A stretch of 64,000 nucleotides of DNA from an uncultured Peptococcaceae bacterium (GCA_964372025.1 CAYJPF010000003.1:3334-67333), one strand, 5' to 3'. Numbered from the stretch's first letter, positions 22,047-40,500 are shown. Notes: generated by a model not told the origin, from the sequence alone. Program-made: numbers and translations.

Positions 22047-22667
22047 CTATGGCGTGTCATTCAAGTCAGCTACTATCCAGTTTAAATAACTTGCGTACAC
22101 TGTGCCACCTACAAATACGCTTGGAGAGCGACTTCCCGAACCCGACAAGGCACTTATAGCCGTCCTTGCTTGATTGTACATGGCAGCAGTGAAGTCATTG
22201 CCCGAGTACGCTGTGCTAAAGCTATAGTTGCTAAGCCCTTGGTAAGCTCTAAACTCATTGATACGAGAAGTGAACAAGTTCCATTCGTAAGCCGATAGAT
22301 TAAAATTGTTGCCCGAAACCTTAGCGGTGACCCATGAAAAATCATCAGGTCTTGGCTCGTAAGGTTCTTCGTCAGCCCTAAACTCTTGAGCACCTATCCA
22401 GTCAAACGAAAGTTCGTCATCAGAAGCAGAAGCAACATTTATTGTGTACCATTCATCTGGGTAAGGGAAAGTTATGTTTTGCTCAAACGATAAAGTAGAA
22501 GAAGATACAGTCGTAATACGGTCACGTATAGTTTCGCCTGTGCCATCACTTTCTCTACCTGTTCTTAAGAAAATGCGATACTTGGTAAAATTACTGTCTG
22601 TTGTAACTTCAATCCTAACGCTGTTATGGTCAAAACTTAGTATGTCGAATGAAGCAGTTGTAGCCAT
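22047..22667 (-). CDS. structural protein, FN3/Ig-like (206 aa)
   Basis: last gene of tail operon; AGGTGG RBS; S/T-rich beta composition. Confidence 0.5.
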   Translation of the reverse strand: MATTASFDILSFDHNSVRIEVTTDSNFTKYRIFLRTGRESDGTGETIRDRITTVSSSTLSFEQNITFPYPDEWYTINVASASDDELSFDWIGAQEFRADEEPYEPRPDDFSWVTAKVSGNNFNLSAYEWNLFTSRINEFRAYQGLSNYSFSTAYSGNDFTAAMYNQARTAISALSGSGSRSPSVFVGGTVYASYLNWIVADLNDTP

Positions 22668-22678
22668 TTAAACACCAC

Positions 22679-24622
22679 CTATCCAAACTTAGCAGTAACA
22701 CCGGTAACATTAGCAGAGCTAAAGTCCACGCTACCATAAAATATAGTAGAATGAGTGCTGTGCCCCACATCCCCCGGTCTTCTGCCTACATACAAGTTTC
22801 CGCTTCCCAATGAATGGGCACTAATGTATAAGCTGGAATTAGCGTCGAGACTAATGTTACCCTCGCTGGATAGTCGTATGTCTCCTAATTGGTTCCAGAA
22901 TTTTAAGTCAGCATTTACAGCCGACAGAACAGCTTCGTTATTAGCGTTATCTATTTCAAAATGCATCTTAGAGTCGTTGTCTATACCACCCATCTCGACA
23001 CCGTTATCAGAGACAACAAGATACCCTTGACCGAACATCATATCAGTATAGTCGTTAGCATCGCTTTCAGCAGCGTTAGCATACCCTCTGGCATCACTAC
23101 GTACCGCAGAAGCCGATAGCGTTATCTCTGACCCTAACTCACTGGATACTTGTGTAATGCGGCTCTCTGTGTCTATAAATCCTTGTGCTGTCTCTGCTTG
23201 GTACTGAGTGACTAAAGAGATGGTAGCATAAGTAGCGTCTGCGTATGTGTAGATGTTCGCTATAGAGACAACTGTGTCGGACATGTACTGACTAAGGGTA
23301 ACGTACCCGCCGTCAGTCTTGATATGCACATCATCGCCTTCGTAACTACCGTTCCAATCGAACTTAGGATTATCTACCGTTGAGTTGTCATAGGCAAGCT
23401 TGAACATCTCGACGACGTTAATTAGCTTATCACCTATCAATACTGTAGCTTCAGACATATTCCACACATCGTAAGACCAATCGATAACGCGTAGTTCTTT
23501 TACCTCTAACTCAGAGCCGTCTGTAGAACGAGCGTACACTCTAACGATATCTCCTATCTGGAAAGTCTCGTGAGCATAGTCAGGTTCTTCTCTACGGTCG
23601 TACAGTTGTACACTGTAGTTTTCTTTAGGCTTGCACCTATCTCTTAGTTCTCGCTGTCCCCAATACTTGAGCTGTGTCTGACCGCTGGTAGATGCAGCAC
23701 CTGTGTACTTAATGTTAGGGTTAACGAGATACCCCTCGTACACTTCGTCTGTATAGGAATAGTTCTCGAGGTAAGTCTTGTCGTTGTTTACAGCTTTAAT
23801 GTTTAGGTTTCCGTCTCCTAAGATGTAAGCCTTAGTGACTATGTTGTTGTCTACGGTGATTACAGGCTCAGCAAGCATGTTTTTACCGTACCGTACATCG
23901 TACCCTACCCACGTATTAAAGTCCGTCCCTATCTTGTCTGCGTCTCTTAGAGATACAGTCTTGGCTATACTATCATAAACAAGTACGCCTCCCCATAGAG
24001 TGCGTATATTTTTTATGTTTGTAAGCACATCTTTCATGTCGCTTTCTAAGTTGAAAACACCGTAATCTTCGTCAGGGTCAAATCCATCCACGAGAACATC
24101 ACAAACACCCAAAGACCAACCAAAGCGATTACCTTTAAGCACAGCCCATAGAGCATATCCTGCGCTACCTCTGGGCATAGTAATACCACGACCATCTTTA
24201 ACTTCGCTGTCATTATACTCAACGCCATTGACTGTAAGCTTATTGGTAGTGGGAGATTTAGGCAGTATCTTGACTGTGTGTTCGTCCATAGCCTCTACTT
24301 CTAAGTCCACATTATGCGCTTGAACATAAGTATTGGCAAGCTCATACCACTTTTCTACCAATATAACAGTGATAGTATCACCCTCATAGCGTACGGCTTC
24401 AGTGCTAAGAGCTTTATATATGCGTCCATTAACATGCCATTCATTACGTAAGTCTTTAACGTCTGCCCACTTCTTGCTGTCACGCAATATAGTAAAGGTA
24501 AAGGTGCTCTCACCATCTAACTGCGTATGAACAATAGGATTTATAATACTACCTTGTGCTACTGCTCCATTGGCAGGTTTATTAAAGACAGCTACTCTGT
24601 GCCCGTCTTTATCAAAAACTTG
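22679..24622 (-). CDS. tail-associated (Tal-like) minor structural protein, GTG start
   Basis: N-terminus VAIQVFDKDGHRVAVF...WHVNGRIYKALSTEA resembles the phage minor structural protein N-terminal region; GAAAGGAG RBS before GTG at 24622. Confidence 0.6.
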   Translation of the reverse strand, partial: QVFDKDGHRVAVFNKPANGAVAQGSIINPIVHTQLDGESTFTFTILRDSKKWADVKDLRNEWHVNGRIYKALSTEAVRYEGDTITVILVEKWYELANTYVQAHNVDLEVEAMDEHTVKILPKSPTTNKLTVNGVEYNDSEVKDGRGITMPRGSAGYALWAVLKGNRFGWSLGVCDVLVDGFDPDEDYGVFNLESDMKDVLTNIKNIRTLWGGVLVYDSIAKTVSLRDADKIGTDFNTWVGYDVRYGKNMLAEPVITVDNNIVTKAYILGDGNLNIKAVNNDKTYLENYSYTDEVYEGYLVNPNIKYTGAASTSGQTQLKYWGQRELRDRCKPKENYSVQLYDRREEPDYAHETFQIGDIVRVYARSTDGSELEVKELRVIDWSYDVWNMSEATVLIGDKLINVVEMFKLAYDNSTVDNPKFDWNGSYEGDDVHIKTDGGYVTLSQYMSDTVVSIANIYTYADATYATISLVTQYQAETAQGFIDTESRITQVSSELGSEITLSASAVRSDARGYANAAESDANDYTDMMFGQGYLVVSDNGVEMGGIDNDSKMHFEIDNANNEAVLSAVNADLKFWNQLGDIRLSSEGNISLDANSSLYISAHSLGSGNLYVGRRPGDVGHSTHSTIFYGSVDFSSANVTGVTAKFG

Positions 24623-24644
24623 TATAGCCACTTTAATTCTCCTT

Positions 24645-25439
24645 TCAATACAGCTCGTCTGATTTCCAAAGGAACATCGGATTATACTGCACAAGCATGT
24701 TTGCTTCAGTCTCAGCGTTGAGAGCAGTCACAGCATAACTCTTAGTCTTGGATATCTTAGTAAAGAGATACCCTTTGCTCAGATAACGCATAGCATTAAT
24801 CTGACTGCCATCTATGCCTAATAGGTAACACCTGTCCTCTACAGCGTCTATAACAAGCGAATAGCCTGTGGGTACAGTACTATCCCACTTGAACTCAACA
24901 TCGCCTACAGTGAAATTAGGAGTTACTACGCCTTCTCCTATCGTTGCTGTAAAGCCTATATCAGCATGACCCTTGTTATCTATCATGCCGTTGCCGTGGA
25001 AGGCTACAGGGGCAACCAACGTTCCATATGGTTGTGTCTCAAACGGTATAGACACCTTAATCATGTTGTATTCGTCAAGTATCTCAGCAGACCCGGAATA
25101 TTTCACCTTAAACATAATACCGGCCTTAGTAAACACAAAGTTTTGATACTTGTCTTTAGTACTGTCGAGAGCAAACACTAAGTCGCGTTTAATCTTTTCC
25201 CTTTGCTCGAATGTTCGCCCTGCATACGACACAGCAACTACAGAGAATACCCTGTTCAAGTACTTAGTATCCTTGACTATTTCGCCATCTACACCGGGGA
25301 TATTAACGATAACATTCTCAGCAACTGGGATAGCAGGGAAGTTAGTTTCATCTGTGTTGACAATCAAACCAAAAGGCATAAAGTATATCCTCGGGTCTGT
25401 ATCTCCCACTCTGCCTATAGTAAAGTTAAAATCACTCAT
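24645..25439 (-). CDS. distal tail protein (Dit)-like, siphovirus tail family
   Basis: MSDFNFTIGRVGDTDPRIYFMPFGL...IPGVDGEIV pattern; paralog of adjacent gene. Confidence 0.6.
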   Translation of the reverse strand: MSDFNFTIGRVGDTDPRIYFMPFGLIVNTDETNFPAIPVAENVIVNIPGVDGEIVKDTKYLNRVFSVVAVSYAGRTFEQREKIKRDLVFALDSTKDKYQNFVFTKAGIMFKVKYSGSAEILDEYNMIKVSIPFETQPYGTLVAPVAFHGNGMIDNKGHADIGFTATIGEGVVTPNFTVGDVEFKWDSTVPTGYSLVIDAVEDRCYLLGIDGSQINAMRYLSKGYLFTKISKTKSYAVTALNAETEANMLVQYNPMFLWKSDELY

Positions 25440-26590
25440 TCAGAAAACTCCTTTCCCCACAAATACATTGGGCTATAATCAGTGACTATACTTGCCAAAG
25501 TGCTTGAGTTGAGGCAAGTAAGCTTTGCACTCTCGTTAAGATTAAGCTTAAAGAACTCTCCGCCTTTAGTTAAATCAGTTATAGCGTTAATTCTATTTCC
25601 AAAACCGTCAATCAGATAGCATATGGATTTGTCTGCATCTATGATAAGCTTATAGCCTTCAGGCACAGTGCCTTCCCACAGAAACTCCAGCGTGCCTACA
25701 GTAAAGTTAGGATTAACACATCCAGCGGACAGGGTGAATATAGCGCCTATAGGCTTAGCGCCTGTATTAGTAATAGTGCCATCTCCGTAGAACTGTTCAG
25801 AGAACAATGTCTTGCCGTAGGGTGAAACTTCAAAAGGCACTGTAGCTCTCAACCAGCCATGTCCCTCACGAACCTCAGCACCGCCTGAGTACTTAACATC
25901 AAAGGTCATGTCGTTCTCTTGGATAGACAACTGCTGGCTCTCATTGCGTGTCCTGTCCAGCAACTCAGCGATGTGAGATTTCATTTCATTTAGCTGAGTA
26001 ACGCTTAGTCCTTGCATTGAGTAAGAGACAATATTAAAGAAACGATTAGTGTACAAAGTATCCTTAATCACTGTGCCATCAACGTTTGGAAGGTCGATAT
26101 AAGTACTTTCTGTAGAGGGCATAATCTGTATCTCGCTCTCTACAGGTGAAAGGAAAGTGTCGAAAGGCATGAACCACTTTTTGCGTGGGTCTCTATCCTC
26201 TGCACCACCAATATAAAAGTCGCTCTCAGCTACTCTGGGAATACCATCAGTAATTTCTACGCTATCAGACACAGGGATATGAGCAAAGGTACTCAAAACG
26301 TCACTTATGCCTATATCGTCTAAAATATCAAGAAACGCTGCAACTGAAGTACCATCTTGCATGTTTATTTGGTCGAACACATCTAATCGTGCTTCAGCAA
26401 GGCGTGTAGCATCGTCAACAATGACACTATCGCCGAATAAGTTAAGCACTTCCTGCAAGCCTATAGCGTCAGAAACATTGATAGTGTCGATTATGCTAAC
26501 CAAATAAGTAATAACTGCTCCATTGTAGGTCAACGCTCCTTCATAGCCATGCGCATTATAACGAGCGTTTTTGTTATAAATGTTGCTCAA
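25436..26590 (-). CDS. Dit-like paralog with about 130-aa N-terminal extension, TTG start
   Basis: Core ESDFYIGGAEDRDPRKKWFMPF...LPNVDGTVIKDT...PMYLW collinear with 24645-25439; AGGAGG 7 nt upstream of TTG at 26590. Confidence 0.55.
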   Translation of the reverse strand: MSNIYNKNARYNAHGYEGALTYNGAVITYLVSIIDTINVSDAIGLQEVLNLFGDSVIVDDATRLAEARLDVFDQINMQDGTSVAAFLDILDDIGISDVLSTFAHIPVSDSVEITDGIPRVAESDFYIGGAEDRDPRKKWFMPFDTFLSPVESEIQIMPSTESTYIDLPNVDGTVIKDTLYTNRFFNIVSYSMQGLSVTQLNEMKSHIAELLDRTRNESQQLSIQENDMTFDVKYSGGAEVREGHGWLRATVPFEVSPYGKTLFSEQFYGDGTITNTGAKPIGAIFTLSAGCVNPNFTVGTLEFLWEGTVPEGYKLIIDADKSICYLIDGFGNRINAITDLTKGGEFFKLNLNESAKLTCLNSSTLASIVTDYSPMYLWGKEFSE

Positions 26591-26597
26591 AAAAAGA

Positions 26598-26628
26598 CCT
26601 CCTAAAAAGAAAAGGGGCAAGCGCCCCT
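26598..26628 (-). terminator. rho-independent terminator (minus strand)
   Basis: GGGGCgcttGCCCC hairpin followed by TTTTCTTTTT on minus strand, immediately after stop of 26633 gene. Confidence 0.55.
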
Positions 26629-26632
26629 CGTC

Positions 26633-28039
26633 TTATATTCTTTCGTATAGATAATACCGCGGGCTTCTGTTTGCACAATCAAGTTCCAACGCTTCCCAAG
26701 AAGTATAGAAGTAATCTCCATTGATTTGCACGTATTTAGAACGATACGAAGAGTCGAACTTCCCGTCATACATATAAGCATCAGCACCCATCACAGTGTC
26801 GTTAATCATAGCCGCAAGGAAGATGTAATGCCCTCCGGTAGAAAAGATGCCGGTGTGACCAGACCTATCTCCACCTACATTAGCAATAACAGCTCCACCG
26901 CGCTTCAGAACCAACTCAGCTTCTTGCCAATCGCTTGTAGTCTGATAATCAACATCCCACTCGTCAGCTACTGCTTCAGAAAGCGTCTTCATGTTTGTTC
27001 CACCTGACACTCTTGCACCACACTCTAAAGCCAGCTCAACCATGCCCTCAACATCTACATTAAAACCCAAGCGAGACAGTACCATAGCCATAGAAGTAGG
27101 GCCACAACCACCGGATGCAACAGTTGCACTCTCGTAGCCCGGTGCAGGGTAAGGCATATTAGGGTAATCTCTTTGATTGAATACAGTAATGTCAGGCTTG
27201 AACTTACTTAAGCTTAACACAAAAGCAGCTCTGTAACCACTGGAAGTAGGATAGTAAATCCTTATTAGTCCATTGATAGTGACATCTCCGATAGCACATA
27301 CGTCACCTTCGGAAATATACCTTCCGCTCTCTATCAATCCAGCTTCGGTGTAAACAGACTGTTTCTCCGTTGAAACTAAAGTTACTTCTTGGTAGTACTC
27401 TGTATCTTCGGGCGGATGCGGCTCTGGTTGTTCTTCGGGCTCAGGCTCTACTATTGCAGGCGCATCATCATAAGCAACAACAGCGTTATATAGATAGTCC
27501 CTTGTGCTGGTGTCATGCCATTCACCTTCAAACAATAAGTACCTGCTTCCACCACCATCGTGATTAGACATGCTTACCATACCTGCGGACATAGCCTTAT
27601 TGCTAAATTGTTCTAAAGTGGTACCTTCATCAACCATGATTACATAGCAATCACCGTTAGCATCCATAGCGAAGCCTATACGATTAGGCTGTGAGTTAAA
27701 TGCAGGGTCACTCCAACTGGGAGGAACATACTTGCCATTGACTACGCTGCCTGTGAACCCGGTAAAGTATTCGTTCCAACCTAACCATGGAGTGCCAAAA
27801 CCAAGAGCTCCATCCTTAGTTATCCCCATACCATAACCATTGCCAGAGTCTTTTACTTGCTTGCCATCCTCAATGATTGTGCCAAGCGGAATGTTCCCTG
27901 TTTCTTTAGACCAATGCACAAATGAACCTGAAAACATAATCACAGGTTTTTCTTTTTGAGCGTTGTACCACTCTGTAGGCGTTTTGCCGCCGAGCCTCAC
28001 AACATCCCATCTTAATCCCTTTGGTAGCTTAAACTTTTT
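26633..28039 (-). CDS. two-domain protein: N-terminal phosphodiester-glycosidase-like domain + C-terminal C39-like cysteine peptidase domain (monocistronic moron)
   Basis: C-terminal GGCGPTSMAMVLSRLG ... GHYIFL (Cys/His dyad of Peptidase_C39_2-type); N-terminal assignment tentative; GTG start with AAGGGG RBS. Confidence 0.55.
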   Translation of the reverse strand, partial: KKFKLPKGLRWDVVRLGGKTPTEWYNAQKEKPVIMFSGSFVHWSKETGNIPLGTIIEDGKQVKDSGNGYGMGITKDGALGFGTPWLGWNEYFTGFTGSVVNGKYVPPSWSDPAFNSQPNRIGFAMDANGDCYVIMVDEGTTLEQFSNKAMSAGMVSMSNHDGGGSRYLLFEGEWHDTSTRDYLYNAVVAYDDAPAIVEPEPEEQPEPHPPEDTEYYQEVTLVSTEKQSVYTEAGLIESGRYISEGDVCAIGDVTINGLIRIYYPTSSGYRAAFVLSLSKFKPDITVFNQRDYPNMPYPAPGYESATVASGGCGPTSMAMVLSRLGFNVDVEGMVELALECGARVSGGTNMKTLSEAVADEWDVDYQTTSDWQEAELVLKRGGAVIANVGGDRSGHTGIFSTGGHYIFLAAMINDTVMGADAYMYDGKFDSSYRSKYVQINGDYFYTSWEALELDCANRSPRYYLYERI

Positions 28040-28074
28040 CACGTCAAAACCCCTTTTCAATTTAGTATGACTTT

Positions 28075-28103
28075 AATATACACCTATAAACATAAAATGT
28101 AAA
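28075..28103 (-). promoter_or_regulatory. candidate minus-strand promoter TTTACA-17-TATATT
   Basis: -10 at 28075-28080, -35 at 28098-28103 (reverse complement), about 35 nt upstream of GTG start. Confidence 0.4.
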
Positions 28104-28460
28104 GTTAATTAAGAGAAATTGTTAGATGTTGTATATATGGCCCTTTGGTGGGCTGGTTGAGCAAATAGCTACTCCCCCCCCCGCACGTGTTTAAAGCAAG
28201 AGAAAGGAGTAGCTACACATATGGCCCTTCGGAGCCGCCGCATATCGCTTTTTGCTATCAGCCGAAACTGAAATCGGATTAACCACCAAGGTCTTGTGTC
28301 AAACGTGGCGGGTGGTCATCCCTTTCCGATTCTCCCCTCATTGCTGAACAAGGACGGGGTCACTGCACTCACAGTGAAATCTTAAAAACAACGTGGCTCT
28401 AACCCACTACATACCGGTGACGAACACGGCACAGGGAATAACTCCACACCCCTGAACAAG

Positions 28461-28500
28461 AGTAAAAATATAAAAGCCCTACAGTGTAAGCGCACTGTAG
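28461..28500 (-). terminator. rho-independent terminator (minus strand)
   Basis: CTACAGTG-taagcg-CACTGTAG 8-bp hairpin followed on minus strand by GGCTTTTATATTTTTAC. Confidence 0.5.
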
Positions 28501-28587
28501 AGCCTTTGTATAACTTAGCATATGCTAAGTTATCATGTATGTAGTCGCTTACCTACAAACAAATAATAGCATACTCGAAAGCGTTTG

Positions 28588-29133
28588 TCAAGCCATGTAA
28601 TGAAAATAACAGTAAATACGCTCGTAAGGTTTTTTACCGCTATCTTCGTCAAACAAAAAGTCCTTAGCCAGCTCAACAAAAAAGCGAGCTTCACCGGTCA
28701 TTTCAGCAATCACAGCACTGCGGTAGTGGTCGTGCCACATAGCATTTAGGACAGCCCAGAACTCCATCTCTGTAAGGTCTGTCATGTCTACGCCATACTG
28801 CTTGCCCACGGCAGTAGTTTGTTGCATGTTCCAGTGTGCGCCCATATGCTTAGCACCGTTAGCTGTATGCCACATTCCGGCTACCCAGTCCTCAAGTTCT
28901 TTATCGCTCAAACGCATTTCGTGGTCTTCGCTATGCATTTCTGCGTCAGGGTAGGTAGCACCTAAAACTTCTGTGTGATAAGTTTTCCAAAACTCACGAC
29001 TACGCATAAGCTTACAAAACTCATACTCATGTACTACTTCGGCTTTCATTGCCGTAGTAAGGGGCATACCTGACTTGATGTCCTCTTGAAGCATTTGCAG
29101 TTTTTTCTCTGCATCAACGCAAGATTTATACAT
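28588..29133 (-). CDS. hypothetical His/Trp-rich protein (181 aa)
   Basis: AGGAGG 8 nt before second in-frame ATG (MYKSCVDAEKK...). Confidence 0.5.
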   Translation of the reverse strand: MYKSCVDAEKKLQMLQEDIKSGMPLTTAMKAEVVHEYEFCKLMRSREFWKTYHTEVLGATYPDAEMHSEDHEMRLSDKELEDWVAGMWHTANGAKHMGAHWNMQQTTAVGKQYGVDMTDLTEMEFWAVLNAMWHDHYRSAVIAEMTGEARFFVELAKDFLFDEDSGKKPYERIYCYFHYMA

Positions 29134-29314
29134 TAGTTTTATCCTCCTGTGTTTCATCTTCGCTTAGCACAGCGTTCATGTCTATGCCAAGCTTGTTTTT
29201 AAGCACCTTGTCGCCCATCTTTAATGCCATCTTGCTGGTGCTTTCAACTATCTTCCGCCCTTCAGCCGTTGTGAATAGGCAAGCAAAAGTAGCTCCCATT
29301 ACAAACTGCTTCAT
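29126..29314 (-). CDS. hypothetical small protein
   Basis: 62 aa from internal ATG; weak RBS. Confidence 0.35.
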   Translation of the reverse strand: MKQFVMGATFACLFTTAEGRKIVESTSKMALKMGDKVLKNKLGIDMNAVLSEDETQEDKTNV

Positions 29315-29315
29315 C

Positions 29316-29762
29316 TTAATTAGCACACTTTCTCTTGCCTTTTACGCCTTGAAGAGTTAAAGAGCACGATGCCGGTGCAAACCTCAAGACGAGTATACTT
29401 CTGCATTGAAGCGTAGTCTGCCACAGGTCAGCAACGCAACCACCTGTACGGCAAGGTAATACTTCATAGACAGGGAGCGTAGTAGTGCCGTCTGTAATCT
29501 CTACAAGATTGCACGAGCTGTCAAGCGGGATGCTGGCAAATAGACCAACCTCGACACATTCGCAAGCACAGAGACCTGTTAAAGCTCCATCCGATACAGT
29601 TACGGTGTACTTGCCGCTCTTTAAAGTTACACTGCTGGCTCGCAGTACGCAGTTACAATTACTCATTTTAGTAGTTCTCCTTTTAAGTTTTATTTCGTTA
29701 GTCGCAGTCGCAACTACAATTCCGTTAATGCTAAAAGACGCTGTGTTTATGATACTAAGCAT
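29316..29762 (-). CDS. Cys-rich protein (12 Cys in C-terminal 116 aa); start ambiguous (29762 or 29666)
   Basis: N-terminus MLSIINTASF resembles MSIVNTANF of upstream gene (shared TAAACACAGC DNA); internal AAGGAG RBS before MSNCNCVLRAS. Confidence 0.4.
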   Translation of the reverse strand: MLSIINTASFSINGIVVATATNEIKLKRRTTKMSNCNCVLRASSVTLKSGKYTVTVSDGALTGLCACECVEVGLFASIPLDSSCNLVEITDGTTTLPVYEVLPCRTGGCVADLWQTTLQCRSILVLRFAPASCSLTLQGVKGKRKCAN

Positions 29763-30106
29763 TGATAGAGTATCAAGTGGCTCGAGTTAGGCATCCAGTT
29801 GACTTCTATATGTGAAGGATTGCCTTCTAAGGGTTCGGCATCTACAGTAAGCGTACCTTCTATATAGCTTAATGCTGAAGGCAGGGTGTCACTAAAGACT
29901 TGATTGGTAAGTTGACCGTTGAAGTCGCTTATTTCGATGGTAACAGCATAGGTAATCACGTCTCCACGATAAACTGAACTTGGGTGAGCTTTTTTGCTAA
30001 TAGTCACAATAGGCTCAACAAGTTGCTCTACAGTGGAGCTGGCATTAACTACAAAGTCTTCATCTCGGAAGCGATAATTAAAGTTAGCTGTGTTTACAAT
30101 TGACAT
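29747..30106 (-). CDS. DUF11-like beta-sandwich (conserved repeat domain) protein
   Basis: YRGDVITYAVTIEISDFNGQLTNQVFSDTLPSALSYIEGTLTVD resembles the DUF11/B_ant repeat pattern. Confidence 0.45.
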   Translation of the reverse strand: MSIVNTANFNYRFRDEDFVVNASSTVEQLVEPIVTISKKAHPSSVYRGDVITYAVTIEISDFNGQLTNQVFSDTLPSALSYIEGTLTVDAEPLEGNPSHIEVNWMPNSSHLILYQCLVS

Positions 30107-30192
30107 GATAGCCTCCTAAATTAAAAGAGGACGGTCTCCCGCCCTCTAAGTCACGCCGAAGCGGAAAGTCACAATAATTTCTTATTGGAAAA

Positions 30193-30711: not shown

Positions 30712-30749
30712 AGTGTTTTGCTCCTTTCAAAAAATATTTATTTCGTCGC

Positions 30750-31115
30750 CTATTTCAGACGAGGAAATTTAGGTTTATTGCTGTTGGAGCTGGATTTATT
30801 TGAGCTTTGTGGCCTGTTTACTCCGCCACTTTTAACTATATTTAATCCTTGTTGTTTTAACTGTTCGGGACTTGTTCCTACAAGGCTTAGCAGAGTCTTA
30901 GCCATTGGATTACTCCCGTATCTATTATACAGTTCGTTTATTCCTTGCTCAGTAATACCAAAGTTACGAGCAATGTCACCTGCTTGGTCGTCAGTTGCTC
31001 CCTGAACTGCTTGGCTTGCTCGTTTTACTGCTTCCTGTATTTCGTTTTGGTTGCCCGGAAACATCTTCATCAACTGTGACAGTATCATTTGTGTGTTGAA
31101 CATTTGCATTACCAC
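30750..31115 (-). CDS. hypothetical protein
   Basis: ORF; overlaps 30991-31416 by about 115 nt in another frame; true start uncertain. Confidence 0.4.
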   Translation of the reverse strand: MVMQMFNTQMILSQLMKMFPGNQNEIQEAVKRASQAVQGATDDQAGDIARNFGITEQGINELYNRYGSNPMAKTLLSLVGTSPEQLKQQGLNIVKSGGVNRPQSSNKSSSNSNKPKFPRLK

Positions 31116-32932: not shown

Positions 32933-33015
32933 ACCTGCTTTATAATTGAGGGAGGCCGCCGCCCGGCGAGAAACGACGACCTCGGAGGTTTTAAATGGAA
33001 TCCAACTGTACCTTT

Positions 33016-33044
33016 ATAGTAGCACGATACCCACTATTTGTCAA
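33016..33044 (-). promoter_or_regulatory. minus-strand promoter TTGACA-17-TACTAT
   Basis: -35 at 33039-33044, -10 at 33016-33021 (reverse complement); spacer ends aTCGTGC as in promoter at 13522. Confidence 0.5.
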
Positions 33045-33095
33045 CACACTTCTAAAGAAATAGTGTTTAAAAATATATTAACAAAAGATTAAGTT

Positions 33096-33572
33096 TCACT
33101 TAGCTCTTTTTTCAAGCTTATTAAAGCTTTCAATCCATGTAGGCATCGTTCCATTGCCATTGCTCTTTTCATAAGCATTGTAAAGTTTAATTACCGTCTC
33201 TACTTCGTCATAGGTGCTGTACCCACGTTCTAAAGCTCGTGTAATCAAATAATGCAGTCGTTCGTGAAGCACGGCAATGTTTGCTTCCTGCAATGCCGGA
33301 AGATTGTCTGCAACAGCGTTTAAACTTTCAATCGCTGTGGTTAGCTTGACAATCTGTCCGCTACAGTCTTTCCGGCATTGCAGCCCTGTTTCTAACTTTT
33401 CTCCCATCACTCTTACCTTTTCTTCAAGAGTTGCAATTTTGTTGTTTTGCAATCGTTTGTCTTGAATACGCCTTGCAATTTTCTTGCAAAGAGGGACAAT
33501 AATTTTTGCCAAAGTTAAATACGCACCTCCAATAATGCCAATTAACCCTGCAGCCTCTACAACTTCAAACAC
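33096..33572 (-). CDS. TM + coiled-coil protein, paralog A (holin-associated)
   Basis: N-terminal TM, C-terminal ERGYSTYDE...NGNGTMPTWIE..NKLEKRAK; paralog of 33594-34085. Confidence 0.5.
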   Translation of the reverse strand: MFEVVEAAGLIGIIGGAYLTLAKIIVPLCKKIARRIQDKRLQNNKIATLEEKVRVMGEKLETGLQCRKDCSGQIVKLTTAIESLNAVADNLPALQEANIAVLHERLHYLITRALERGYSTYDEVETVIKLYNAYEKSNGNGTMPTWIESFNKLEKRAK

Positions 33573-33593
33573 ACCTTGCCCCCCTTAGCAAAA

Positions 33594-34085
33594 CTAACTG
33601 GCTCTTTTTTCAAGCCCTCCGTATACTTCCATCCACTTTGCCATAACGCCGTTACCATCGTTTTCTAAATACGCTCGGTGCAGATTGTGGATAACATCAA
33701 ACTCGTCAAAAGTCGTATACCCACGCTCTACAGCCTTTGTAATTAAATGATGAAGCTTGTCGTACATCATAGCAAGATTTGCCGCTTGAAGAGCTCTTAA
33801 CGCAGGTCTGAACCCTTCTGCTTCTTTAATTAACTCCTTTAAGGCGATGCTGTCTTCTTCGTACTTTTCGTCTAATTCAGCACCGGCTTTTACTGCCTCT
33901 TTCAACTCCCTCAAAACCTCCTCCAACTTGGCTATGCGTTCGCCTTGCATTTTTGTTGCCTGTCTTGCATCCCACCATCTACGAATGGGAGGCATGATTA
34001 GTTTTTGAACGGCTATAATGGCTCCGGCTACAATTGAAATTCCACCAAACCAGCCAAGTATTACGTCCATTTGCAAGCTAATCAT
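33594..34085 (-). CDS. TM + coiled-coil protein, paralog B
   Basis: C-terminal ERGYTTFDE...NDGNGVMAKWME..GGLEKRAS collinear with paralog A. Confidence 0.5.
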   Translation of the reverse strand: MISLQMDVILGWFGGISIVAGAIIAVQKLIMPPIRRWWDARQATKMQGERIAKLEEVLRELKEAVKAGAELDEKYEEDSIALKELIKEAEGFRPALRALQAANLAMMYDKLHHLITKAVERGYTTFDEFDVIHNLHRAYLENDGNGVMAKWMEVYGGLEKRAS

Positions 34086-34106
34086 CCTTTCGTTGGGAAG
34101 AATGTT

Positions 34107-34289
34107 TTACAGATGTCCGCTGTCTGTAGGATTGTTTACAATACCAAACGCTACAAGTACCGGCAACAGCACATTTAGGAGTCCGTCAACGGTTGCTGAA
34201 ATGTCAATACCGGCAAACTCTTTTACACAAAAAGTTACCAGTGCTGCGATAGACACCCAAAGTGCCCAACTCTTAAATCTGTTTTGCAT
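34107..34289 (-). CDS. holin, phiLC3/Phage_holin_1-like (60 aa, two TM)
   Basis: NRFKSWALWVSIAALVTFCV...GIDISA...LLPVLVAFGIVNNPTDSG matches phiLC3-family pattern. Confidence 0.6.
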   Translation of the reverse strand: MQNRFKSWALWVSIAALVTFCVKEFAGIDISATVDGLLNVLLPVLVAFGIVNNPTDSGHL

Positions 34290-34291
34290 AG

Positions 34292-34702
34292 TTATACCTC
34301 GTTTTCTTTCTGAGCTTCTTGCTCCTTAATGTTCAACTTAGCGTACTCGTCGGCAAGGGTAGAAATGAGTTCCATATCCCAGTGGTCGTGAGTCTCGTAC
34401 CACTTTTCAACGGCTTTGAACATTGCAAACGACCATTTGTATTCAGGATTTGCACCCATAAAATACATTTGGTTGTTCTCTGCAAATTCGTTACGCCATG
34501 CGTTAATCTGCTCAGCTGTTGCCACCTCAAACTCTGCAATAACTACAGGGTCATAAGCAGGGGCTACGGCAATGCCAAGTTTCAAAGCTTTCATGTCTGC
34601 TGCAAACATGTCTACATGCTGGTCAATGGTGTGAATACTGTCAGGGGTAGACTTATCGACTACCTCAACTTGCGTGATGTGCTTCAAGATTAGATTGTTC
34701 AT
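34292..34702 (-). CDS. hypothetical protein (136 aa)
   Basis: ORF; no motif. Confidence 0.5.
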   Translation of the reverse strand: MNNLILKHITQVEVVDKSTPDSIHTIDQHVDMFAADMKALKLGIAVAPAYDPVVIAEFEVATAEQINAWRNEFAENNQMYFMGANPEYKWSFAMFKAVEKWYETHDHWDMELISTLADEYAKLNIKEQEAQKENEV

Positions 34703-34723
34703 TTTGTTTGCCTCCTTTTTATT

Positions 34724-35206
34724 TTAAATGCTTATCCAATACTTTTTGCCTGTAATAGTATCAGGAGCATTTAATTCGTTTCTGCTGTGACTCTGCTTAC
34801 ATTCGTAATTAGCACCATTCCACGACACCCTGTCGGTGCCGTCCAAAAAGTAATAATCAATAGCATAGCTATCCCAAGAGGGATAACCAGCCTCAAGCCT
34901 TAGCCAGAATGCCTTTTCGTCGCTATAAGTAGCGGTCACAGGGTCAATACCTTTAACAGGCTTCTCTGCCATGTATTCTGCTCCGTCAGAGCCTGTAACA
35001 ATATCGCCCCTGATGTACCGTTGCTCAGGGTTATACGCGTCACCTGCTTTAGGTATACCGCTTAATTGTCCGTCTACAATAGTGAGAGCTGACAGCCTTG
35101 TTGTAGTTTCGCTAAGTGCAATTTCCATCTCGAGTATCTCATTAGCCTTTGCTTCTGCAAGCACAAGGTCTACTGTAAATCTGCTATCTGCTTTAGGCAT
35201 TTTCAA
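34724..35206 (-). CDS. protein with tandem CBM5/12-like carbohydrate-binding repeats
   Basis: AYNPEQRYIRGDIVTGSDGAEYMAEKPVKGIDP and YYFLDGTDRVSWNGANYECKQSHSRNEL. Confidence 0.5.
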   Translation of the reverse strand: MKMPKADSRFTVDLVLAEAKANEILEMEIALSETTTRLSALTIVDGQLSGIPKAGDAYNPEQRYIRGDIVTGSDGAEYMAEKPVKGIDPVTATYSDEKAFWLRLEAGYPSWDSYAIDYYFLDGTDRVSWNGANYECKQSHSRNELNAPDTITGKKYWISI

Positions 35207-35606
35207 TTACCTCCGTTCCGGGTAAAGTCGGCCACACTACAGCATCGGGAAATCCCTCTTGCTCTGTGACATCTCGCAAAGCTTGTTTGTATATCTGCCA
35301 CTCAACCTTCTCTTCGGGAGATTTAAGCTCCCAGTTAGATGCGTTGCAATAGGTTAAGTCACATTCAAGCAGTAGTGCGTTACGCTGGTCGCGGATTACT
35401 TGTTCTTTCTGTGGGTCGAGTTCGGAGTGCTCAACTTTATCCCACCAGAGTTCTTCGGTCTCCACGTTAACCTTAAGGATGTAATCAAAAGGTACTGAAC
35501 CCGGCGGAGGCGGAATAGTGTCCGTAAGGAAATATGGACGGTCTGTCGGTGGTTTAGTTGAATATGACGCTAAGTCCCCACCGAACGTAAAAACATAATA
35601 AATCAT
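35193..35606 (-). CDS. tail fibre assembly protein (Caudo_TAP/Tfa-like)
   Basis: C-terminal KVEWQIYKQALRDVTEQEGFPDAVVWPTLP matches Tfa W..YR..L...WP..P signature. Confidence 0.55.
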   Translation of the reverse strand: MIYYVFTFGGDLASYSTKPPTDRPYFLTDTIPPPPGSVPFDYILKVNVETEELWWDKVEHSELDPQKEQVIRDQRNALLLECDLTYCNASNWELKSPEEKVEWQIYKQALRDVTEQEGFPDAVVWPTLPGTEVIENA

Positions 35607-35618: not shown

Positions 35619-36878
35619 TTATAGTGGTAAAACTATAGCACCGCAAAAACTACCAGACCCCATCGATATGGCCGCTGAGTTACTGCTGATAGCAATGACT
35701 AAAGACGTCTTCGGGGAATGACCATACTCTTGGTCGTAGATAGAGATGGTGTTTTTGTTGGTAGACTGAACAATAATTAGGTCTGTTCCAGCGTTTTCGC
35801 TGGAGTATATCATAAAATAATCAAATGGGTTATCGTTGCTCAAATAGGTTGTATAATTACTTTTATTAATTCTAAAGTTGTGTGCCGATGCGCCGACTCC
35901 TATGTACACGGCCATCCCGGAGCTATTGTCCACATATTGTTTATTAACCGCGTCTCCGTCGTCAGTAGGAGTTGCAAGATTGAGTATCTTATTTGTCGCC
36001 ATGTTAATGGCACCTGACATATTCCCACCACTTGTTGTTAAATAACTTAGTAACCTTTCAAGCAAAAAGCTTTGAGGAACAGCGTCATTGGCCTCAGCAG
36101 GAGAGGAGACATTCTGGATAGGGTTCCCACCCATGTTTAAGGTGCCACTCATTGTTCCTCCAATTTTGGGCAAAGCGTCTATAGGTGTAGCCCATTGCTC
36201 ACCGGTAGCTGTCTTGGTTAGAACTTGCCCAGCTTCTCCGGCTACAGTAGGCTTGGCTATAACGTCCTCTTTTAAAGCATAAGGTGTTAAGTCTATTTTA
36301 GCAGCAGAAGGCACCCAATCGCCTGTCACGCTGTCCCAGATATAGAACATATTCTCCGTGCCCAACACAAGAGCATAGTCACCACTAAGGCTTGTAGGTA
36401 AAGCTGTACGCAAAGCTTCTACAGAGGCATAATCACCCTTGTAGTTATCTATATGCTCCTCTATGGCTGCCAGCGATGCATTTATAGCCGATATAACGGC
36501 ACTTACATCGTTGACACATACAGCACTAACAGTAATCGTATCGTCCGCTGTGGGATACGTAGAAGGCTGCCCGACGAACTCTATACTACCACCTATATAA
36601 CTTACAGCAAATTGCGCAGACTCAGGAGTGATTATGACTCCATTCTTCTTAACAATAGGAGCAGGGCTTTCAAGCCAACCCTTCTTATCGTTAGGCACTT
36701 GGAATATACGATAGCGGTCGTCTGCGTCTATATAGACCTCAGTCATAGCCAAATCAGTTATTTCAGTAGTGCCAAGATTAAGCGCAGTAGCTAATTTAGT
36801 TATAGCTCCAGAGAGACCGGCAATGTCCGCACTCTTAGCAGCAGTTGAGCCGGGGTCAAATGATACAAATGTAGCCAT
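35619..36878 (-). CDS. tail fibre protein
   Basis: two copies of the fibre repeat GGTMSGTLNMGGNPIQNVSSPAEANDAVPQSFL / GGNMSGAINMATNKILNLATPTDDGDAVNKQYVD. Confidence 0.65.
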   Translation of the reverse strand: MATFVSFDPGSTAAKSADIAGLSGAITKLATALNLGTTEITDLAMTEVYIDADDRYRIFQVPNDKKGWLESPAPIVKKNGVIITPESAQFAVSYIGGSIEFVGQPSTYPTADDTITVSAVCVNDVSAVISAINASLAAIEEHIDNYKGDYASVEALRTALPTSLSGDYALVLGTENMFYIWDSVTGDWVPSAAKIDLTPYALKEDVIAKPTVAGEAGQVLTKTATGEQWATPIDALPKIGGTMSGTLNMGGNPIQNVSSPAEANDAVPQSFLLERLLSYLTTSGGNMSGAINMATNKILNLATPTDDGDAVNKQYVDNSSGMAVYIGVGASAHNFRINKSNYTTYLSNDNPFDYFMIYSSENAGTDLIIVQSTNKNTISIYDQEYGHSPKTSLVIAISSNSAAISMGSGSFCGAIVLPL

Positions 36879-36898: not shown

Positions 36899-37489
36899 TT
36901 AAGCAGACAGAATGGTTATAGTGCCCTGAAGCGTCCAAGTAGAGCCAAGAGCCTTAGTACCCATATTCTGCACAGTCCTATTAAGGGCAACAGCTTCGCC
37001 TGTGTTCCCGTTAAGGATACAAACCTCACGCCAGTTGCCATTAGCTGCATCGTCATCGAATACAGCTCTAAATATGACAGAGCGCCCACTAACTTGAGGA
37101 TAGCCCGATTGCACTTTAGCTGTACCCAAGGAAGCAAGAACACCTACTTGGTCTGCGGCAGAGGGAGTTTCGCTTGAACCGACAGCCATATATGCGTTAG
37201 CCTCAGAATACGGAGTAGCAGACGCGCCTACAAGGGCTTTAAGCAGCTCAGCAGCGCCGCCGTTAAGGATTATATTCCCACCGTCTTCGTACACTTCATA
37301 AGGGACAGCTCCTTCAGCAAGAGCTAAATAGTCCTCAGTATGGTACTTGTTAATCAGAGTATGAAAGCACCATCTAACATGCTCAGATACGCCAAGCTTC
37401 TTACCAACCTGCCGGAGCAGGTCAGTAAGTTGGTCGGTATTTAAATCCTTGAGATTGTCGAGTATAAAGTTAAAATTCTTGTCTTGCAT
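36899..37489 (-). CDS. hypothetical structural protein (196 aa)
   Basis: GAAAGG RBS before ATG (MQDKNF...); directly downstream of tape measure. Confidence 0.5.
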   Translation of the reverse strand: MQDKNFNFILDNLKDLNTDQLTDLLRQVGKKLGVSEHVRWCFHTLINKYHTEDYLALAEGAVPYEVYEDGGNIILNGGAAELLKALVGASATPYSEANAYMAVGSSETPSAADQVGVLASLGTAKVQSGYPQVSGRSVIFRAVFDDDAANGNWREVCILNGNTGEAVALNRTVQNMGTKALGSTWTLQGTITILSA

Positions 37490-37551
37490 AATAAAGCCGC
37501 CTTTCTTCGATTGCTTCTCTGTTTTCATCATACACCCATTTGTTCGAAAAA

Positions 37552-40500
37552 TCAATAGGGCAGTAGCCTAAAGTCTAAGCTACTATATCCCGACTGTCTT
37601 TTCGTAGGTGTAAGATTTACTACTGTATTGTTCGTTGTGCGGGTGTTGTTGTAGTTGTTTTGAGAACCGGTATAACCTGAGCTTCCGCCGGGACTTGTAG
37701 GCATAGAAGGTGTCATCTTCTTCTGTTCTTCTTGGAATTGCCTTAGAACCGCAGCAAAATCTTCCGAGATAGGCTGTATCCAGCCATCACGCCATGCTTC
37801 ATACAAGATTTGAGCACTGCTCTCTCCAACTGATACCATGCCGTGGATAAAGATATCGTCTATCTCTAACCTTGCAGGGTCTGCCCATTCCTCTCCAAAG
37901 ACTTTAGATAGGTCTACAGCAGCAAGTTTGTTGTCTTTCTCCATCTGTTCAAGAACATCAGCCCACATCTTCTCGGCTAAATCGGTAGCCGGTATCATGT
38001 AATCTGTTTTATAGCTCTCCAGCAAGGCTTGATTGTCGTAGGATAGGTTATCCGCATCCAGCTCATTAACTTCATCTACGAGGGCAGATAAAGCGTCAAT
38101 AAGCCTATCAATGACTTCAAGCTCAGCATCTCTTAACGACTCAAGTTGCTCAATCTGGTCATCAATACGCCAGTCCTCAAGTTGCTCATTCCAATCCTTG
38201 TTGATATCAGAAATCTCTTCCATGATATCAGCTTCTTGTTCACGGTACTCTACACCGCTTCGAGCAGAAGCTTCAGCCAAAGACTTACTTGCTTCATCAA
38301 GACGCTCATAGTACTCTTCCTTAGCACGTATACGGTCGTTCTCTTGTTCGACATCCCTAAGCGCATCAATCTGAGCCTGATACCTGTCCTCAATAGCTTC
38401 TTTTTCGCGCTCTAAAGCTTCGATATTAAGCTCAAAGTTCTTTGTTATCTCTTCTTGGGTTTCTGCAAAATTAGACTGTATCTCTACAATTTCATTCTGC
38501 AAGTCCCACCAAGCGGTACTGTTAGCAAGGATGTCTGTAGCATACTCGTTAGGGTCAATAGCACGATATAAATTATTGACCTCGTGTAGTTTCTGCTGTA
38601 TAATCTGAAGCAATGCTACTTGCTCTTCGTCAGATGCGCCTCTTGCTCTTGAAAACTCCAACTCTGCTTCAGCTAAAGCCAAAGCCTCTTCTGCAGCTGT
38701 GATGCGTGGGTCTTCCGTGTCGCTACCGCCATAGCTATCATAGCTGTACGTATCGCCGGAAACATCTGGTAGCTGTACCCCAGCTTCAAGGTTGGCAAGC
38801 TCTTCTTGTATCTGACCTACCATGTCTAAAGCTGAAAGATATTCTTGCTCAGCAGCGATAAAGTCTGCGGTAGCTTCCTCTGCCAAAGAAGAAAACCCTT
38901 TGCGAATGTTAGCTATTTGGATATCTTTTTCGGCTTGTTCTGCAACATTAAGCCACTTCTCCAGCTCTGAGGTAAGCCCTTCAACATTAGTAGAAACAAC
39001 AAGGTTATTGACATTCATACCTTGTGCAAACAAAGCCGAAACCATTTGTGCCTGAGTAAGCAAGCCCTCGGTAGCTTCTTTCATTTGCTCGATACGAGTA
39101 ATAGCGTCTACTATTTCGTTTCCGACATCAACCCAAGCATTAGCGTAGTCCTCTAAGACTCCATTAACGATATCTTGAAGTAACTCTCCAGCCTCTCCAT
39201 TCTCTCGTATATACGCCTGCACATAGCTTTGAATAGCATCCCATGCTTCGCCTTCGCCCTTTACTCTTGCAGCGTTATAAGCATCAAAGTATCCGGACAT
39301 AGCATCTATTGCGTCTTCTACTTCAGCACCGTATAGCTCTTCTACTTCAAGTGCGGCTATCTGGGCTTTTCTTAGGATGTCATCGTTGATTGTATCCCAA
39401 TGCTCCTGATAGTCAGCTTCATATTCACTCATACGAGCTTCAATCGCAGTATATACTTCCTGAACTTCCGAAGGCCATTCGCTGAAGTCCATAGTGTATT
39501 GCTGATTTAACAGTTCCTGCAAACGCTCTAAGTTTTTGTAGATATCAAGAGCGCTGTCTCCAGAAATCTCAAAGGTTCTAAAAAGCTCCTCACCCTTAGA
39601 GTTGATTGTATCTATAGAGCCACCTACCTGTTCAATAAGGTGCTCTATTTCGGTAAGCTCTGGTACAGACTCTCCAAAAGTAAATCCTGTACTTTCAGAT
39701 GACTCCATAAGAAGCCCGCCTTGTTCGTTAATACGATTGGCGTTTGCAACTGCAACTTGATTTTCTATTTCTAAAGCTTTAAGTCGCTCTATAGACTCTT
39801 GCGCTATAAGAGCTATACCAGATTGACGACCATCGTTAAGCTTCTCAATCTGTTCTGCCTCAAGTGCATAAGCTTCAGTGACATCTTTTACCCAACCGCC
39901 AAGAACCTGCCTCTGAGATGCTTCTTCAGTCTGTAATAGCACTGTAGACTTGTACTGGTCTGACAGTTTTTGCATAGCAGAAAGCTCGTCAAACACCTCT
40001 TGTGCTCTATCATTAGCAGCAACAGACATCTCGCGTTGTTTTTCGTTATAATCTTCGATGGCACTAACTATTGCGTTTACAGCAAGAGTGCCGATAGCAA
40101 AGGCGGTAGTCCAACCAGTTATACTTTGGCTAAGAGTTTTGCTGACTTTAGCTGCTGCTTCTACGTTTGGATTGAACTTATTTGCTATGTTTTTTCCAGC
40201 ATTAACAAACGCAGTCCCAACACCACCAATAAACTTAGCAATGTTCTCTTGTTTGATAAGCAAGAAGGCTATCCACACTGCATTGAGCAGAGAAGGTATA
40301 CCACCGATTACGCCTACAAACTTTACAAGTTCGGTAAGCGCAGAAGTTAATCCTTTGAAGAAACTTAGTCCGCTCTCTTCACTAAAAGCTACTGCCAGCA
40401 ATTCAGCTTCATTACGCAGTACTTGGAAACGTACAGCAAGTGTGTTCATAACCTTGACGTTTTCTTCAACTGAATAATTAGAAGCAGTAAGCATACCCTC

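Follow-up and report, generated by a model that had tools for sequence, protein, structure and literature searches.

The adjacency of the genes encoding the tape measure protein (TMP), the distal tail protein (Dit) and the tail-associated, or tip, protein (Tal) is a widely used rule for annotating siphovirus tails and for locating their receptor-binding proteins (RBPs). The canonical tips of Gram-positive siphoviruses are encoded in this order, as gp18-gp19.1-gp21 in SPP1 and as TMP-Dit-Tal-RBP, followed by holin and lysin, in the lactococcal phages p2 and TP901-1. In the elements PBSX and SPbeta, the late operon closes, after the baseplate genes, with a run encoding the fibre XkdV, XkdW, XkdX, XhlA, a holin and an endolysin. 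Among 57 siphoviruses of the Bacillus cereus group that were surveyed, Dit was encoded directly after tmp whenever it was found, and the sole displaced adsorption gene noted was the RBP gene of 'organization C' (PBC1, Anath), situated before the gene of the major tail protein or immediately behind that of the holin (PMC9128512). With the archaeal virus HFTV1, the tip genes run gp40 (TMP), gp41 (a Dit-like connector, directly after TMP), gp42 (fibre), gp43 and gp44 (the hub, 954 amino acids [aa], to which the fibres attach), with no interleaved lysis genes (PDB 9h4p; PMC12494034). The subject of the present analysis is a 64,000-nucleotide stretch of DNA from an uncultured Peptococcaceae bacterium (GCA_964372025.1 CAYJPF010000003.1:3334-67333; hereafter, the window), in which the Dit and Tal genes of a siphovirus are separated from the TMP gene by 10.9 kb, and the family of related contigs that consistently breaks the rule in the same manner.

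A protein 100% identical to the window Tal is encoded on a 70,377-bp NCBI contig and many Tal homologs lie on contigs of 67-77 kb; the window therefore represents most of a ~70 kb siphovirus genome, of an uncultured gut-associated family. Its genes at 770-22015 lie on the plus strand and include those for a tyrosine recombinase, RecT, an ANT/Bro antirepressor and a metallo-beta-lactamase-fold protein. The minus-strand genes run from 64000 down to 22047, and this unit encodes a DnaD-like helicase loader, a DnaB-like helicase, the large terminase subunit, portal, a ClpP-type protease, the major capsid protein and the TMP. From the TMP gene onward, the order in the direction of transcription is as follows, with ~5.5 kb of accessory genes lying between the holin gene and the endolysin candidate (TM, transmembrane):

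37552-41757, minus strand: TMP, 1401 aa; ten PHROG tape-measure families (best E 7.7e-34), with PF10145 carried by the homologs in relatives
36899-37489, minus strand: putative fibre-tip-like (adhesin-like) protein, 196 aa; phrog_23653 (E 1.6e-34)
35619-36878, minus strand: tail fibre; tail-fibre PHROGs
35193-35606, minus strand: Tfa-type tail fibre assembly chaperone; PF16778 (E 2.6e-17) and several tail-fibre-assembly PHROGs
34724-35206, minus strand: CBM5/12-like protein, 160 aa; PF02839 (E 1.1e-5, 25.8 bits, marginally below the cut-off of 26.2)
34107-34289, minus strand: holin, 60 aa, with two TM-like segments; PF04531 (22.1 bits, cut-off 22) and phrog_297, holin (E 1.9e-8)
26633-28060, minus strand: endolysin candidate, 475 aa, NAGPA plus Peptidase_C39_2; PF09992 (44.4 bits, cut-off 25) and PF13529 (35.8 bits, cut-off 24)
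26629-26612, minus strand: GC-rich hairpin with a T-run, between the endolysin stop codon and the Dit ribosome-binding site
25436-26590, minus strand: Dit-A, a family-type distal tail protein extended by ~120 aa at its N-terminus; phrog_33, 'distal tail protein Dit' (E 2.7e-13, scored as 25436-26620)
24645-25439, minus strand: Dit-B, an extra, divergent Dit paralog, 264 aa; phrog_33 (E 2.8e-14)
22679-24622, minus strand: Tal, 647 aa; PF06605, Prophage_tail (E 2.1e-15, 57.5 bits against a cut-off of 31.3, residues 210-419)
22047-22667, minus strand: 206-aa protein, last gene of the operon; phrog_37329, to its C-terminus (E 6.6e-22)
22017-22046, where the late and early units converge: bidirectional terminator-like hairpin, AAAAAA-GGAGAGGA-ttta-TCCTCTCC-TTTT, as read from the sequence

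An original prediction, made from the sequence, had described a split tail module with Dit-Dit-Tal about 10 kb 3' of the tape measure gene. Every gene it named was found on the minus strand with profile support, and the distance from the TMP stop (37552) to the Dit-A start (26590) was measured as 10.9 kb. The components of the canonical tip are all present and Dit still directly precedes Tal (Dit-B ends at 24645 and Tal starts at 24622, an adjacency kept in all relatives), but Dit is not immediately 3' of the tape measure gene; a fibre module and the whole of the lysis cassette lie between the two, and Dit-Tal end the operon. The displacement also differs in kind from that of 'organization C', where the RBP gene is the one displaced and no Dit was identified (PMC9128512), whereas in the window it is Dit and Tal that lie behind the lysis genes and the fibre gene that lies beside TMP. 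The other large open reading frames (ORFs) of the window that were scanned with Pfam and PHROGs yielded no further Dit or Tal candidate, and the idea of a second tail-tip set in another part of the window was rejected for this reason.

The start codon of Dit-A is most likely the TTG at 26590, behind an AGGAGG ribosome-binding site, rather than the codon at 26620. Dit-A clusters with the single-copy Dits of the relatives, proteins of ~430 aa that share the N-terminal extension and are up to 48% identical to it. Dit-B is only 32-40% identical to every other Dit of the family, and outside the window two copies were found solely in L005, whose Tal is the closest (57%) of those of the relatives. 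Profile PF05709 (Sipho_tail) matched all 11 of the aligned family Dits at E<=0.1 (best 3.9e-7), and PF22768 (SPP1_Dit) matched three of these (best 2.7e-8). An alignment of the family Dits compared by hhalign with SPP1 gp19.1 gave an E-value of 6.9e-4, collinear over 183 columns (residues 43-235 of 253). Neither a search of PDB sequences with the family Dit (hmmsearch) nor one of phage records with both window Dits (tblastn) returned a significant match. The two Dits could possibly assemble as stacked or mixed rings, an arrangement which is pure inference.

The window Tal matches four tail PHROGs in addition to PF06605. Its N-terminal ~430 aa are conserved across the family while the C-terminus varies; 144 homologs were identified in metagenome assemblies, and among the 120 listed, whose lengths range from 582 to 1069 aa, nearly all contain PF06605. 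The nearest cultured homologs are annotated as 'minor tail protein' and occupy canonical positions. Comparison of the family Tal with SPP1 gp21 by hhalign gave a weak match (E 0.035, probability 1.4%), and PDB sequences gave none of significance. The 206-aa protein that follows Tal has an N-terminal half predicted as a seven-strand beta region. With tblastn, its C-terminal half matches the C-terminus of Basilisk gp52, the product of the last tail-module gene before the Basilisk lysis genes, as well as the C-termini of proteins of the large Bacillus siphoviruses Thrax, Sophrita and PBC2 that were named 'fibronectin-like' by their depositors. The label 'FN3-like' initially given to this protein could not be verified; its single-sequence AlphaFold2 model (pLDDT 49) was too poor for a fold search.

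The organization of the window was compared with that of 18 relatives, most of them 55-77 kb in length, with Tal proteins 36-57% identical to that of the window. Twelve of these are the contigs L003, L005-L012, L014, L018 and L019, and six further metagenome contigs (L023, L024, L026, L027, L030 and L032) were obtained from a scan of JGI and ENA assemblies, with gene order established by tblastn. Dit-Tal form the end of the late unit in all 18. In relatives with gene calls, the last position before the convergent early region always belongs to Tal or to a single small gene behind it, and early genes (SSB, beta-lactamase-fold, RecT, integrase) follow Dit-Tal wherever downstream gene calls exist. 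The TMP gene is apart from Dit-Tal in all 17 contigs that reach it, L012 beginning inside the interval. This interval measures 1.9-7.9 kb in the relatives (1.9-6.7 kb in the first 11, ~3.7-7.9 kb in the six metagenome contigs), and the 10.9 kb of the window is the longest among the 18 measurable genomes, the window included. In 17 of the 18 relatives, the gene next after TMP encodes a homolog (34-50% identical) of the 196-aa protein, L005 having none (tblastn); with the same exception, this is accompanied by the fibre N-terminus in 10 of the 11 TMP-reaching contigs of the first twelve.

Between these conserved ends lies a block without similarity from one relative to another. Searches with the window proteins (tblastn) showed TMP, Dit and the N-terminal ~430 aa of Tal to be conserved and found nothing between the fibre N-terminus and Dit. 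DNA similarity among family members follows the same pattern, extending over TMP, the region of the 196-aa protein and the fibre N-terminus, and Dit-Tal, and never over the block between the fibre N-terminus and Dit. The most compact arrangement is that of L011, which reads TMP, a 208-aa protein, a 400-aa protein, Dit and Tal, with no lysis genes between. The order is thus conserved, if unusual, and not the product of a one-off insertion, and the proposal of a non-canonical baseplate gene order was sustained, TMP and Dit-Tal being parted by a variable block in the related contigs.

The direction of the change is indicated by more distant homologs. In L038, L036 and L035, the Tal proteins of which are 27-35% identical to that of the window, Dit begins 8-18 bp after the TMP stop. 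L038 (27% identical) carries TMP at 1588-5958, Dit at 5976-6728 and Tal at 6749-8344, and the Dit start of L036 and L035 lies 8 and 16 bp after the TMP stop, respectively. The cultured Weizmannia phage Youna2, among the nearest cultured sources of Tal homologs, likewise has the order TMP-Dit-Tal, as does SPP1. Given this canonical adjacency in distant homologs and in Youna2, the split is derived and characterizes the family, the ancestor of which would have undergone a rearrangement. Most probably, then, one ancestral rearrangement parted the tape-measure gene from the tail-tip genes, and the family has retained the non-canonical order ever since. The idea of a large insertion into the tail operon fared accordingly: it failed as a private event of this phage, the relatives having the same order, and it stands only in weaker senses, as an ancestral rearrangement, the distant homologs being canonical, and for the ~5.5 kb of cargo that has no homologs in 12 relatives.

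A number of points weigh against this reading. The identity of Dit is supported by profiles alone; Dit-B on its own scores below threshold with PF05709 (16.3 bits against a cut-off of 24.2), and the hhalign probability for the family Dit with SPP1 gp19.1 is just 27%, a weak match. More generally, functional roles were assigned through homology throughout. The boundaries in the six metagenome loci are tblastn spans and not gene calls, and some of the 18 contigs are possibly near-duplicates of one phage population, so that '18' may overstate the independent observations. No closely related pair showing a recent cassette exchange was found among the relatives (blastn), and the terminator and promoter scans were overall not above shuffled expectation, only the positions of the sites being suggestive.

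No cultured phage of the family was present in the collection searched: among its 50,697 phage records, megablast with the 20 kb region found no match, and the portal is at most 27% identical to that of any record. Scans of IMG/VR with single proteins were likewise empty, and a scan with the Dit alignment retrieved one truncated locus.

How the order arose can be pictured in more than one way. A possible, if somewhat doubtful, account is that there was no insertion and that the Dit-Tal pair was relocated to the far end of a late operon, behind the fibre, the lysis genes and the terminator with which it had formerly closed. The terminator-like hairpin between the lysis genes and Dit would be explained by such a move; it occurs in the window (26629-26612) and, just upstream of Dit, in seven of the 11 relatives examined, a situation resembling a classical late-operon end. 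The invariant position of Tal, or of one small gene, as the last before the early region is also in keeping with it, as are the runs of fibre, XkdX, holin and endolysin genes, which resemble PBSX-type operon ends. The block of the relatives has a fibre gene, an XkdX-type gene (PF09693) in L008 and YomQ_N/DUF4376 in L009, followed by holin and endolysin genes; the difference from PBSX and SPbeta is that in the window family this host recognition and lysis run precedes Dit-Tal. However, canonical fibre and RBP genes follow Tal, so the genes for the ~200-aa protein and the fibre must still have come to adjoin TMP. The lack of intervening lysis genes in L011 fits a stepwise insertion at least equally well, and the final order is identical under insertion and translocation.

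A recent, private insertion of a ~10 kb fibre, lysis and accessory block into a canonical operon is improbable. The window does have the longest TMP-to-Dit interval, and its holin-endolysin stretch of ~5.5 kb (28588-33572) is divided by three terminator-like hairpins and has no homolog in 12 relatives. Against this stands the fact that TMP and Dit are already apart in the relatives, 17 of which carry the same two conserved genes after TMP. With the related phages showing the same order, the very outcome that had been set beforehand as its refutation, a private insertion is refuted as the source of the split, and only the extra cargo can be lineage-specific. Nor do GC content and GC3, calculated gene by gene, give the cargo a foreign-DNA signature, save for the gene of the hydrophobic membrane protein.

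That the 196-aa protein and the fibre are the real equivalents of Dit and Tal, with the distal Dit-Dit-Tal as a second device, a remnant or a satellite-derived set, is more improbable still. The two proteins do occupy the slots expected of Dit and Tal, the same pair follows TMP in an unrelated phage group of ~58 kb with no Dit or Tal detected within 7 kb, and the fold of the 196-aa protein matches part of the HFTV1 baseplate hub. Nonetheless, the confident model of the 196-aa protein had no Dit structure listed among its 50 best Foldseek matches in the PDB, and profile comparison by hhalign was null with both the family Dit (probability 0.3%) and SPP1 Dit (0.1%). The 196-aa protein is thus not the true Dit, a possibility raised at the outset that the AlphaFold2 fold, Foldseek and hhalign all failed to support, and this candidate was rejected. 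The fibre, for its part, matches neither PF06605 nor any Tal PHROG. The fold of the 196-aa protein resembles instead stand-alone small proteins and fibre-tip domains from filamentous archaeal viruses as well as from myo-, podo- and siphoviruses, and homologs occur outside of tail-tip contexts (REQ1, PhiF1), while the distal genes have specific Dit and Tal profile matches, are intact and conserved, and are always paired. Finally, a chimeric contig joining two phages inside the tail module, for which nothing was found beyond the metagenome-type assembly of the source, is hardly credible and was rejected, since 18 contigs derived from many different samples and assemblers (ENA, Logan, NCBI, JGI) share this order and strand bias and composition are uniform across the region.

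The organization of the family is TMP, a ~200-aa fibre-tip-like protein, a fibre with a conserved N-terminal anchor, a hypervariable block (fibre C-terminus, chaperones, CBM proteins, holin, endolysin and cargo), and then Dit and Tal as the last late genes ahead of the convergent early region. Gene order would be dispensable for assembly, and a conventional tip is expected to enter the virion, comprising TMP, a Dit ring and a Tal trimer, presumably decorated by the fibre and the small adhesin-like protein. Particular to this phage are the extra divergent Dit paralog and the distance of ~6 kb between holin and endolysin, which is taken up by a non-coding leader of 0.5 kb and three terminator-bounded accessory units. 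A variable 'host recognition plus lysis' slot between conserved genes is the role proposed for the stretch that runs from the fibre C-terminus through to the endolysin. Its transcription may be semi-autonomous, with the hairpin before Dit and promoter-like matches as leads only; the best sigma-70-like promoter match of the scanned region falls in the gap between TMP and the ~200-aa gene in both L003 and L007.

A stronger form of this proposal, rather unlikely as things stand, would make the TMP-Dit block a self-contained, exchangeable 'host-range plus lysis' unit with its own promoter after TMP and a terminator before Dit. Fibre and endolysin would be swapped together by recombination through the conserved flanks, TMP, the ~200-aa gene and the fibre N-terminus on one side and Dit and Tal on the other, and Dit-Tal would be expressed only through read-through of this terminator. 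As the starters of tail assembly together with TMP, Dit and Tal would then be the last and least abundant of the late products, and the supply of tips would be coupled to lysis-gene expression.

By profile search, more than 1,000 homologs of the 196-aa protein were recovered; they are ~160 aa long, lack any Pfam family and come from very diverse environments and phyla. A model of the window protein built by AlphaFold2 from an alignment of 55 homologs had a pLDDT of 90.9. The sole PDB match of this model by Foldseek at E<=0.001 was a tail chain of HFTV1, 9h4p_BD (953 aa; E 1.1e-5, probability 1.00, TM-score 0.48), taken to be the baseplate hub gp44 from the size of the protein. Matches in BFVD comprised small uncharacterized proteins of haloarchaeal, Campylobacter and Bacillus phages, lipothrixvirus proteins, and proteins named 'tail fibre' or 'tail collar fibre', and the family gave no significant match to PDB sequences. 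Away from TMP, PhiF1 has a homolog behind its baseplate genes and REQ1 has one that sits between primase and lysin. The protein most plausibly represents a small adhesin resembling a fibre tip, or else an accessory protein of the fibre, and its relatives a candidate new domain family with a fold apparently common to the HFTV1 baseplate hub, phage fibre tips and lipothrixvirus proteins. The parallel with HFTV1 extends to gene order, the fibre gene lying in both between TMP-proximal and hub genes. It has its limits, however: part of gp44 matches the fold with a TM-score of only 0.48, the matched region was not located by hhalign, there is no sequence similarity to the 196-aa protein (hhalign probability 0.3%), and HFTV1, as an archaeal virus with its Dit-like connector beside TMP and no interleaved lysis genes, differs in each of these respects.

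The fibre carries two copies of the motif GG(T/N)MSG...DAV. Its N-terminal ~200 aa, the presumed anchor, are kept across the family while the C-terminal part varies, such that only the N-terminal ~130-240 aa were found in relatives by tblastn; there was no significant match to PDB sequences. In L008, genes for a collagen-repeat protein (424 aa) and a CBM5/12 protein (223 aa) lie at 12168-15097 on the strand opposite Tal, convergent with and right after it, and fibre-like genes of that phage thus fall outside the late operon.

A 196-aa homolog next to TMP is also seen in the unrelated ~58 kb group, represented by L021 (1698-14386) and L022 (ENA k119_16113; NCBI CAOUDU010000185.1), a protein cluster of which occurs on >120 contigs. 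There, the TMP gene is followed by those for a 234-aa homolog of the 196-aa protein, a holin (Phage_holin_1), a 369-aa protein and, lastly, a repeat protein of 1729 aa, and the TMP stop overlaps the start codon of the homolog. The N-terminus of the 369-aa protein of L021 is 40% identical to that of the window fibre over 199 aa, and no Dit or Tal profile match was detected within 7 kb after TMP. If true, the arrangement of a small adhesin and fibre after TMP with an interleaved holin would hint at a wider design among phages of gut Firmicutes.

The lysis genes of the window are themselves divided. It had been noted that the holin has no recognizable endolysin adjacent to it; none lies beside the holin indeed, but an endolysin candidate was overlooked at 26633-28060 (NAGPA plus C39_2), directly upstream of Dit-A and ~6 kb from the holin gene. 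With this candidate, the lysis cassette of the window would be complete, its halves ~6 kb apart. A NAGPA domain with a cysteine peptidase (CHAP) is among the endolysin architectures reported for gut phages (PMC13284279). The candidate gave no significant match to PDB sequences, and no small TM-containing ORF was found beside it in the window. It may alternatively be a virion-associated lysin. In relatives, the gene directly upstream of Dit encodes GH25 (L003, L009, L019), Amidase_3 (L006), CHAP (L005, L010), M23 (L008, L018) or NAGPA plus Amidase_3 (L007). An endolysin of varying catalytic type thus lies just upstream of Dit in nine of the ten contigs with Pfam-annotated gene calls, with none there in L011. 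Holin and endolysin are neighbours in L005 (Phage_holin_6_1 directly upstream of the endolysin) and in L007 (Phage_holin_1 directly downstream).

The remaining features between the CBM5/12-like gene and Dit-A are listed here:

34292-34702, minus strand: 136-aa protein directly 5' of the holin gene; no match in Pfam, PHROGs, NCBIfam or PADLOC, and no TM segment
33096-34085, minus strand: two tandem paralogs of 163 and 158 aa, each with an N-terminal TM segment and a helical region; 36% identity (E 5e-36), phrog_4257
31583-32932, minus strand: polytopic membrane protein, 449 aa, with eight TM-like segments; no family match in Pfam, PHROGs, NCBIfam or PADLOC
31551-31520, minus strand: terminator-like hairpin of 13 pairs with a T-run, 3' of the membrane-protein gene
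30193-31470, minus strand: three small accessory ORFs of 159, 121 and 172 aa, the last with one TM segment; no family matches
30147-30126, minus strand: terminator-like hairpin of nine pairs, six of them GC
28588-30106, minus strand: accessory unit encoding a DUF11-repeat protein (119 aa; TIGR01451, E 2.7e-9), a Cys-rich protein (148 aa, 11 Cys), a 66-aa ORF and a DUF7841 protein (189 aa; PF25223, E 6.9e-13)
28507-28472, minus strand: strong terminator-like hairpin of 15 pairs
28061-28587, minus strand: non-coding gap of 527 bp, holding the preceding hairpin, a sub-threshold EGFOA-like match (28271-28381) and, before the endolysin gene, a promoter-like site (28103-28075)

The two paralogs had been placed on either side of the holin gene; both sit downstream of it. 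Likewise, the count of two terminator/promoter boundaries was too low, as three long intergenic terminator-like hairpins are present in the block, plus the fourth at 26629-26612. Promoter-like sites lie at 33044-33016 and 32923-32895, just upstream of the gene for the 449-aa membrane protein. Tested gene by gene, the genes at 28588-35606 had no tblastn match in the 12 relatives. PADLOC detected no defence system among ten cargo proteins and, of the NCBIfam models, only the DUF11 repeat was found in the cargo. From their sequences, the ~5.5 kb of genes between holin and endolysin look like lineage-specific, terminator-bounded cargo of the moron type. The DUF11-repeat and Cys-rich genes (29316-30106, minus strand) are adjacent and both products start with the motif M(S/L)I(V/I)NTA(N/S)F; the repeat is of the isopeptide type, and the terminator-bounded unit is shared with the DUF7841 protein. 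By sequence, this pair looks like surface-protein-like cargo.

Some 400 nt of non-coding sequence separate the hairpin at 28507-28472 from the endolysin gene. The match to the EGFOA RNA (RF02955) at 28271-28381, on the minus strand, covers the model at full length (1-108) at 25.7 bits, below the gathering threshold of 37.7 (E 0.008-0.019), and this element could be a structured leader or a small RNA. Folding of the leader at 28110-28470 was not exceptional (z-score -1.5), and no match was found in the whole window with Rfam at gathering thresholds or with a tRNA scan.

No new protein machinery or mechanism is demonstrated by these observations, and their significance is moderate. Annotation by position would mislabel the 196-aa protein as 'Dit' and the fibre as 'Tal' in this family, and the real tip genes, 2-11 kb distant, would be overlooked. 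As the family shows, a place beside the tape measure or before the lysis genes is not required of the genes whose products initiate tail assembly. The family further provides a natural variable slot of fibres, diverse endolysins and cargo flanked by conserved structural genes, which could serve the engineering of host range.

Several minor observations were made in the course of the comparison. Immediately upstream of Dit, some relatives have a gene for a major tail protein paralog, namely L009 (8018-8959), L026 (7991-8770) and L027 (8036-8857); that of L009 is 23% identical to the product of window positions 42666-43493 (E 2e-18). The early region of the family is also highly mosaic, with RtcB in L009, an RNA ligase and an HNH/NUMOD endonuclease in L003, and an IS605 OrfB/TnpB (Cas12f-like) gene in L018 (16231-17349). 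Two contigs, L013 and L014 (67 and 76.6 kb), were binned into metagenome-assembled genomes labelled Oscillospiraceae and Muribaculaceae, a weak hint only as to the host, since both contigs have the size of a phage genome; the Gram-positive-type endolysins (CHAP, Amidase_3, GH25, faint SLH) argue against a Muribaculaceae host. Within the window, a protein with a PAPS-reductase domain (PF01507, E 1.3e-20) is encoded on the minus strand at 59784-60662, near the replication genes, and a GIY-YIG endonuclease on the plus strand at 13624-14352, between a DUF1351-like gene and RecT. HFTV1 likewise encodes a PAPS reductase, and the two window proteins may have roles in DNA modification or homing.

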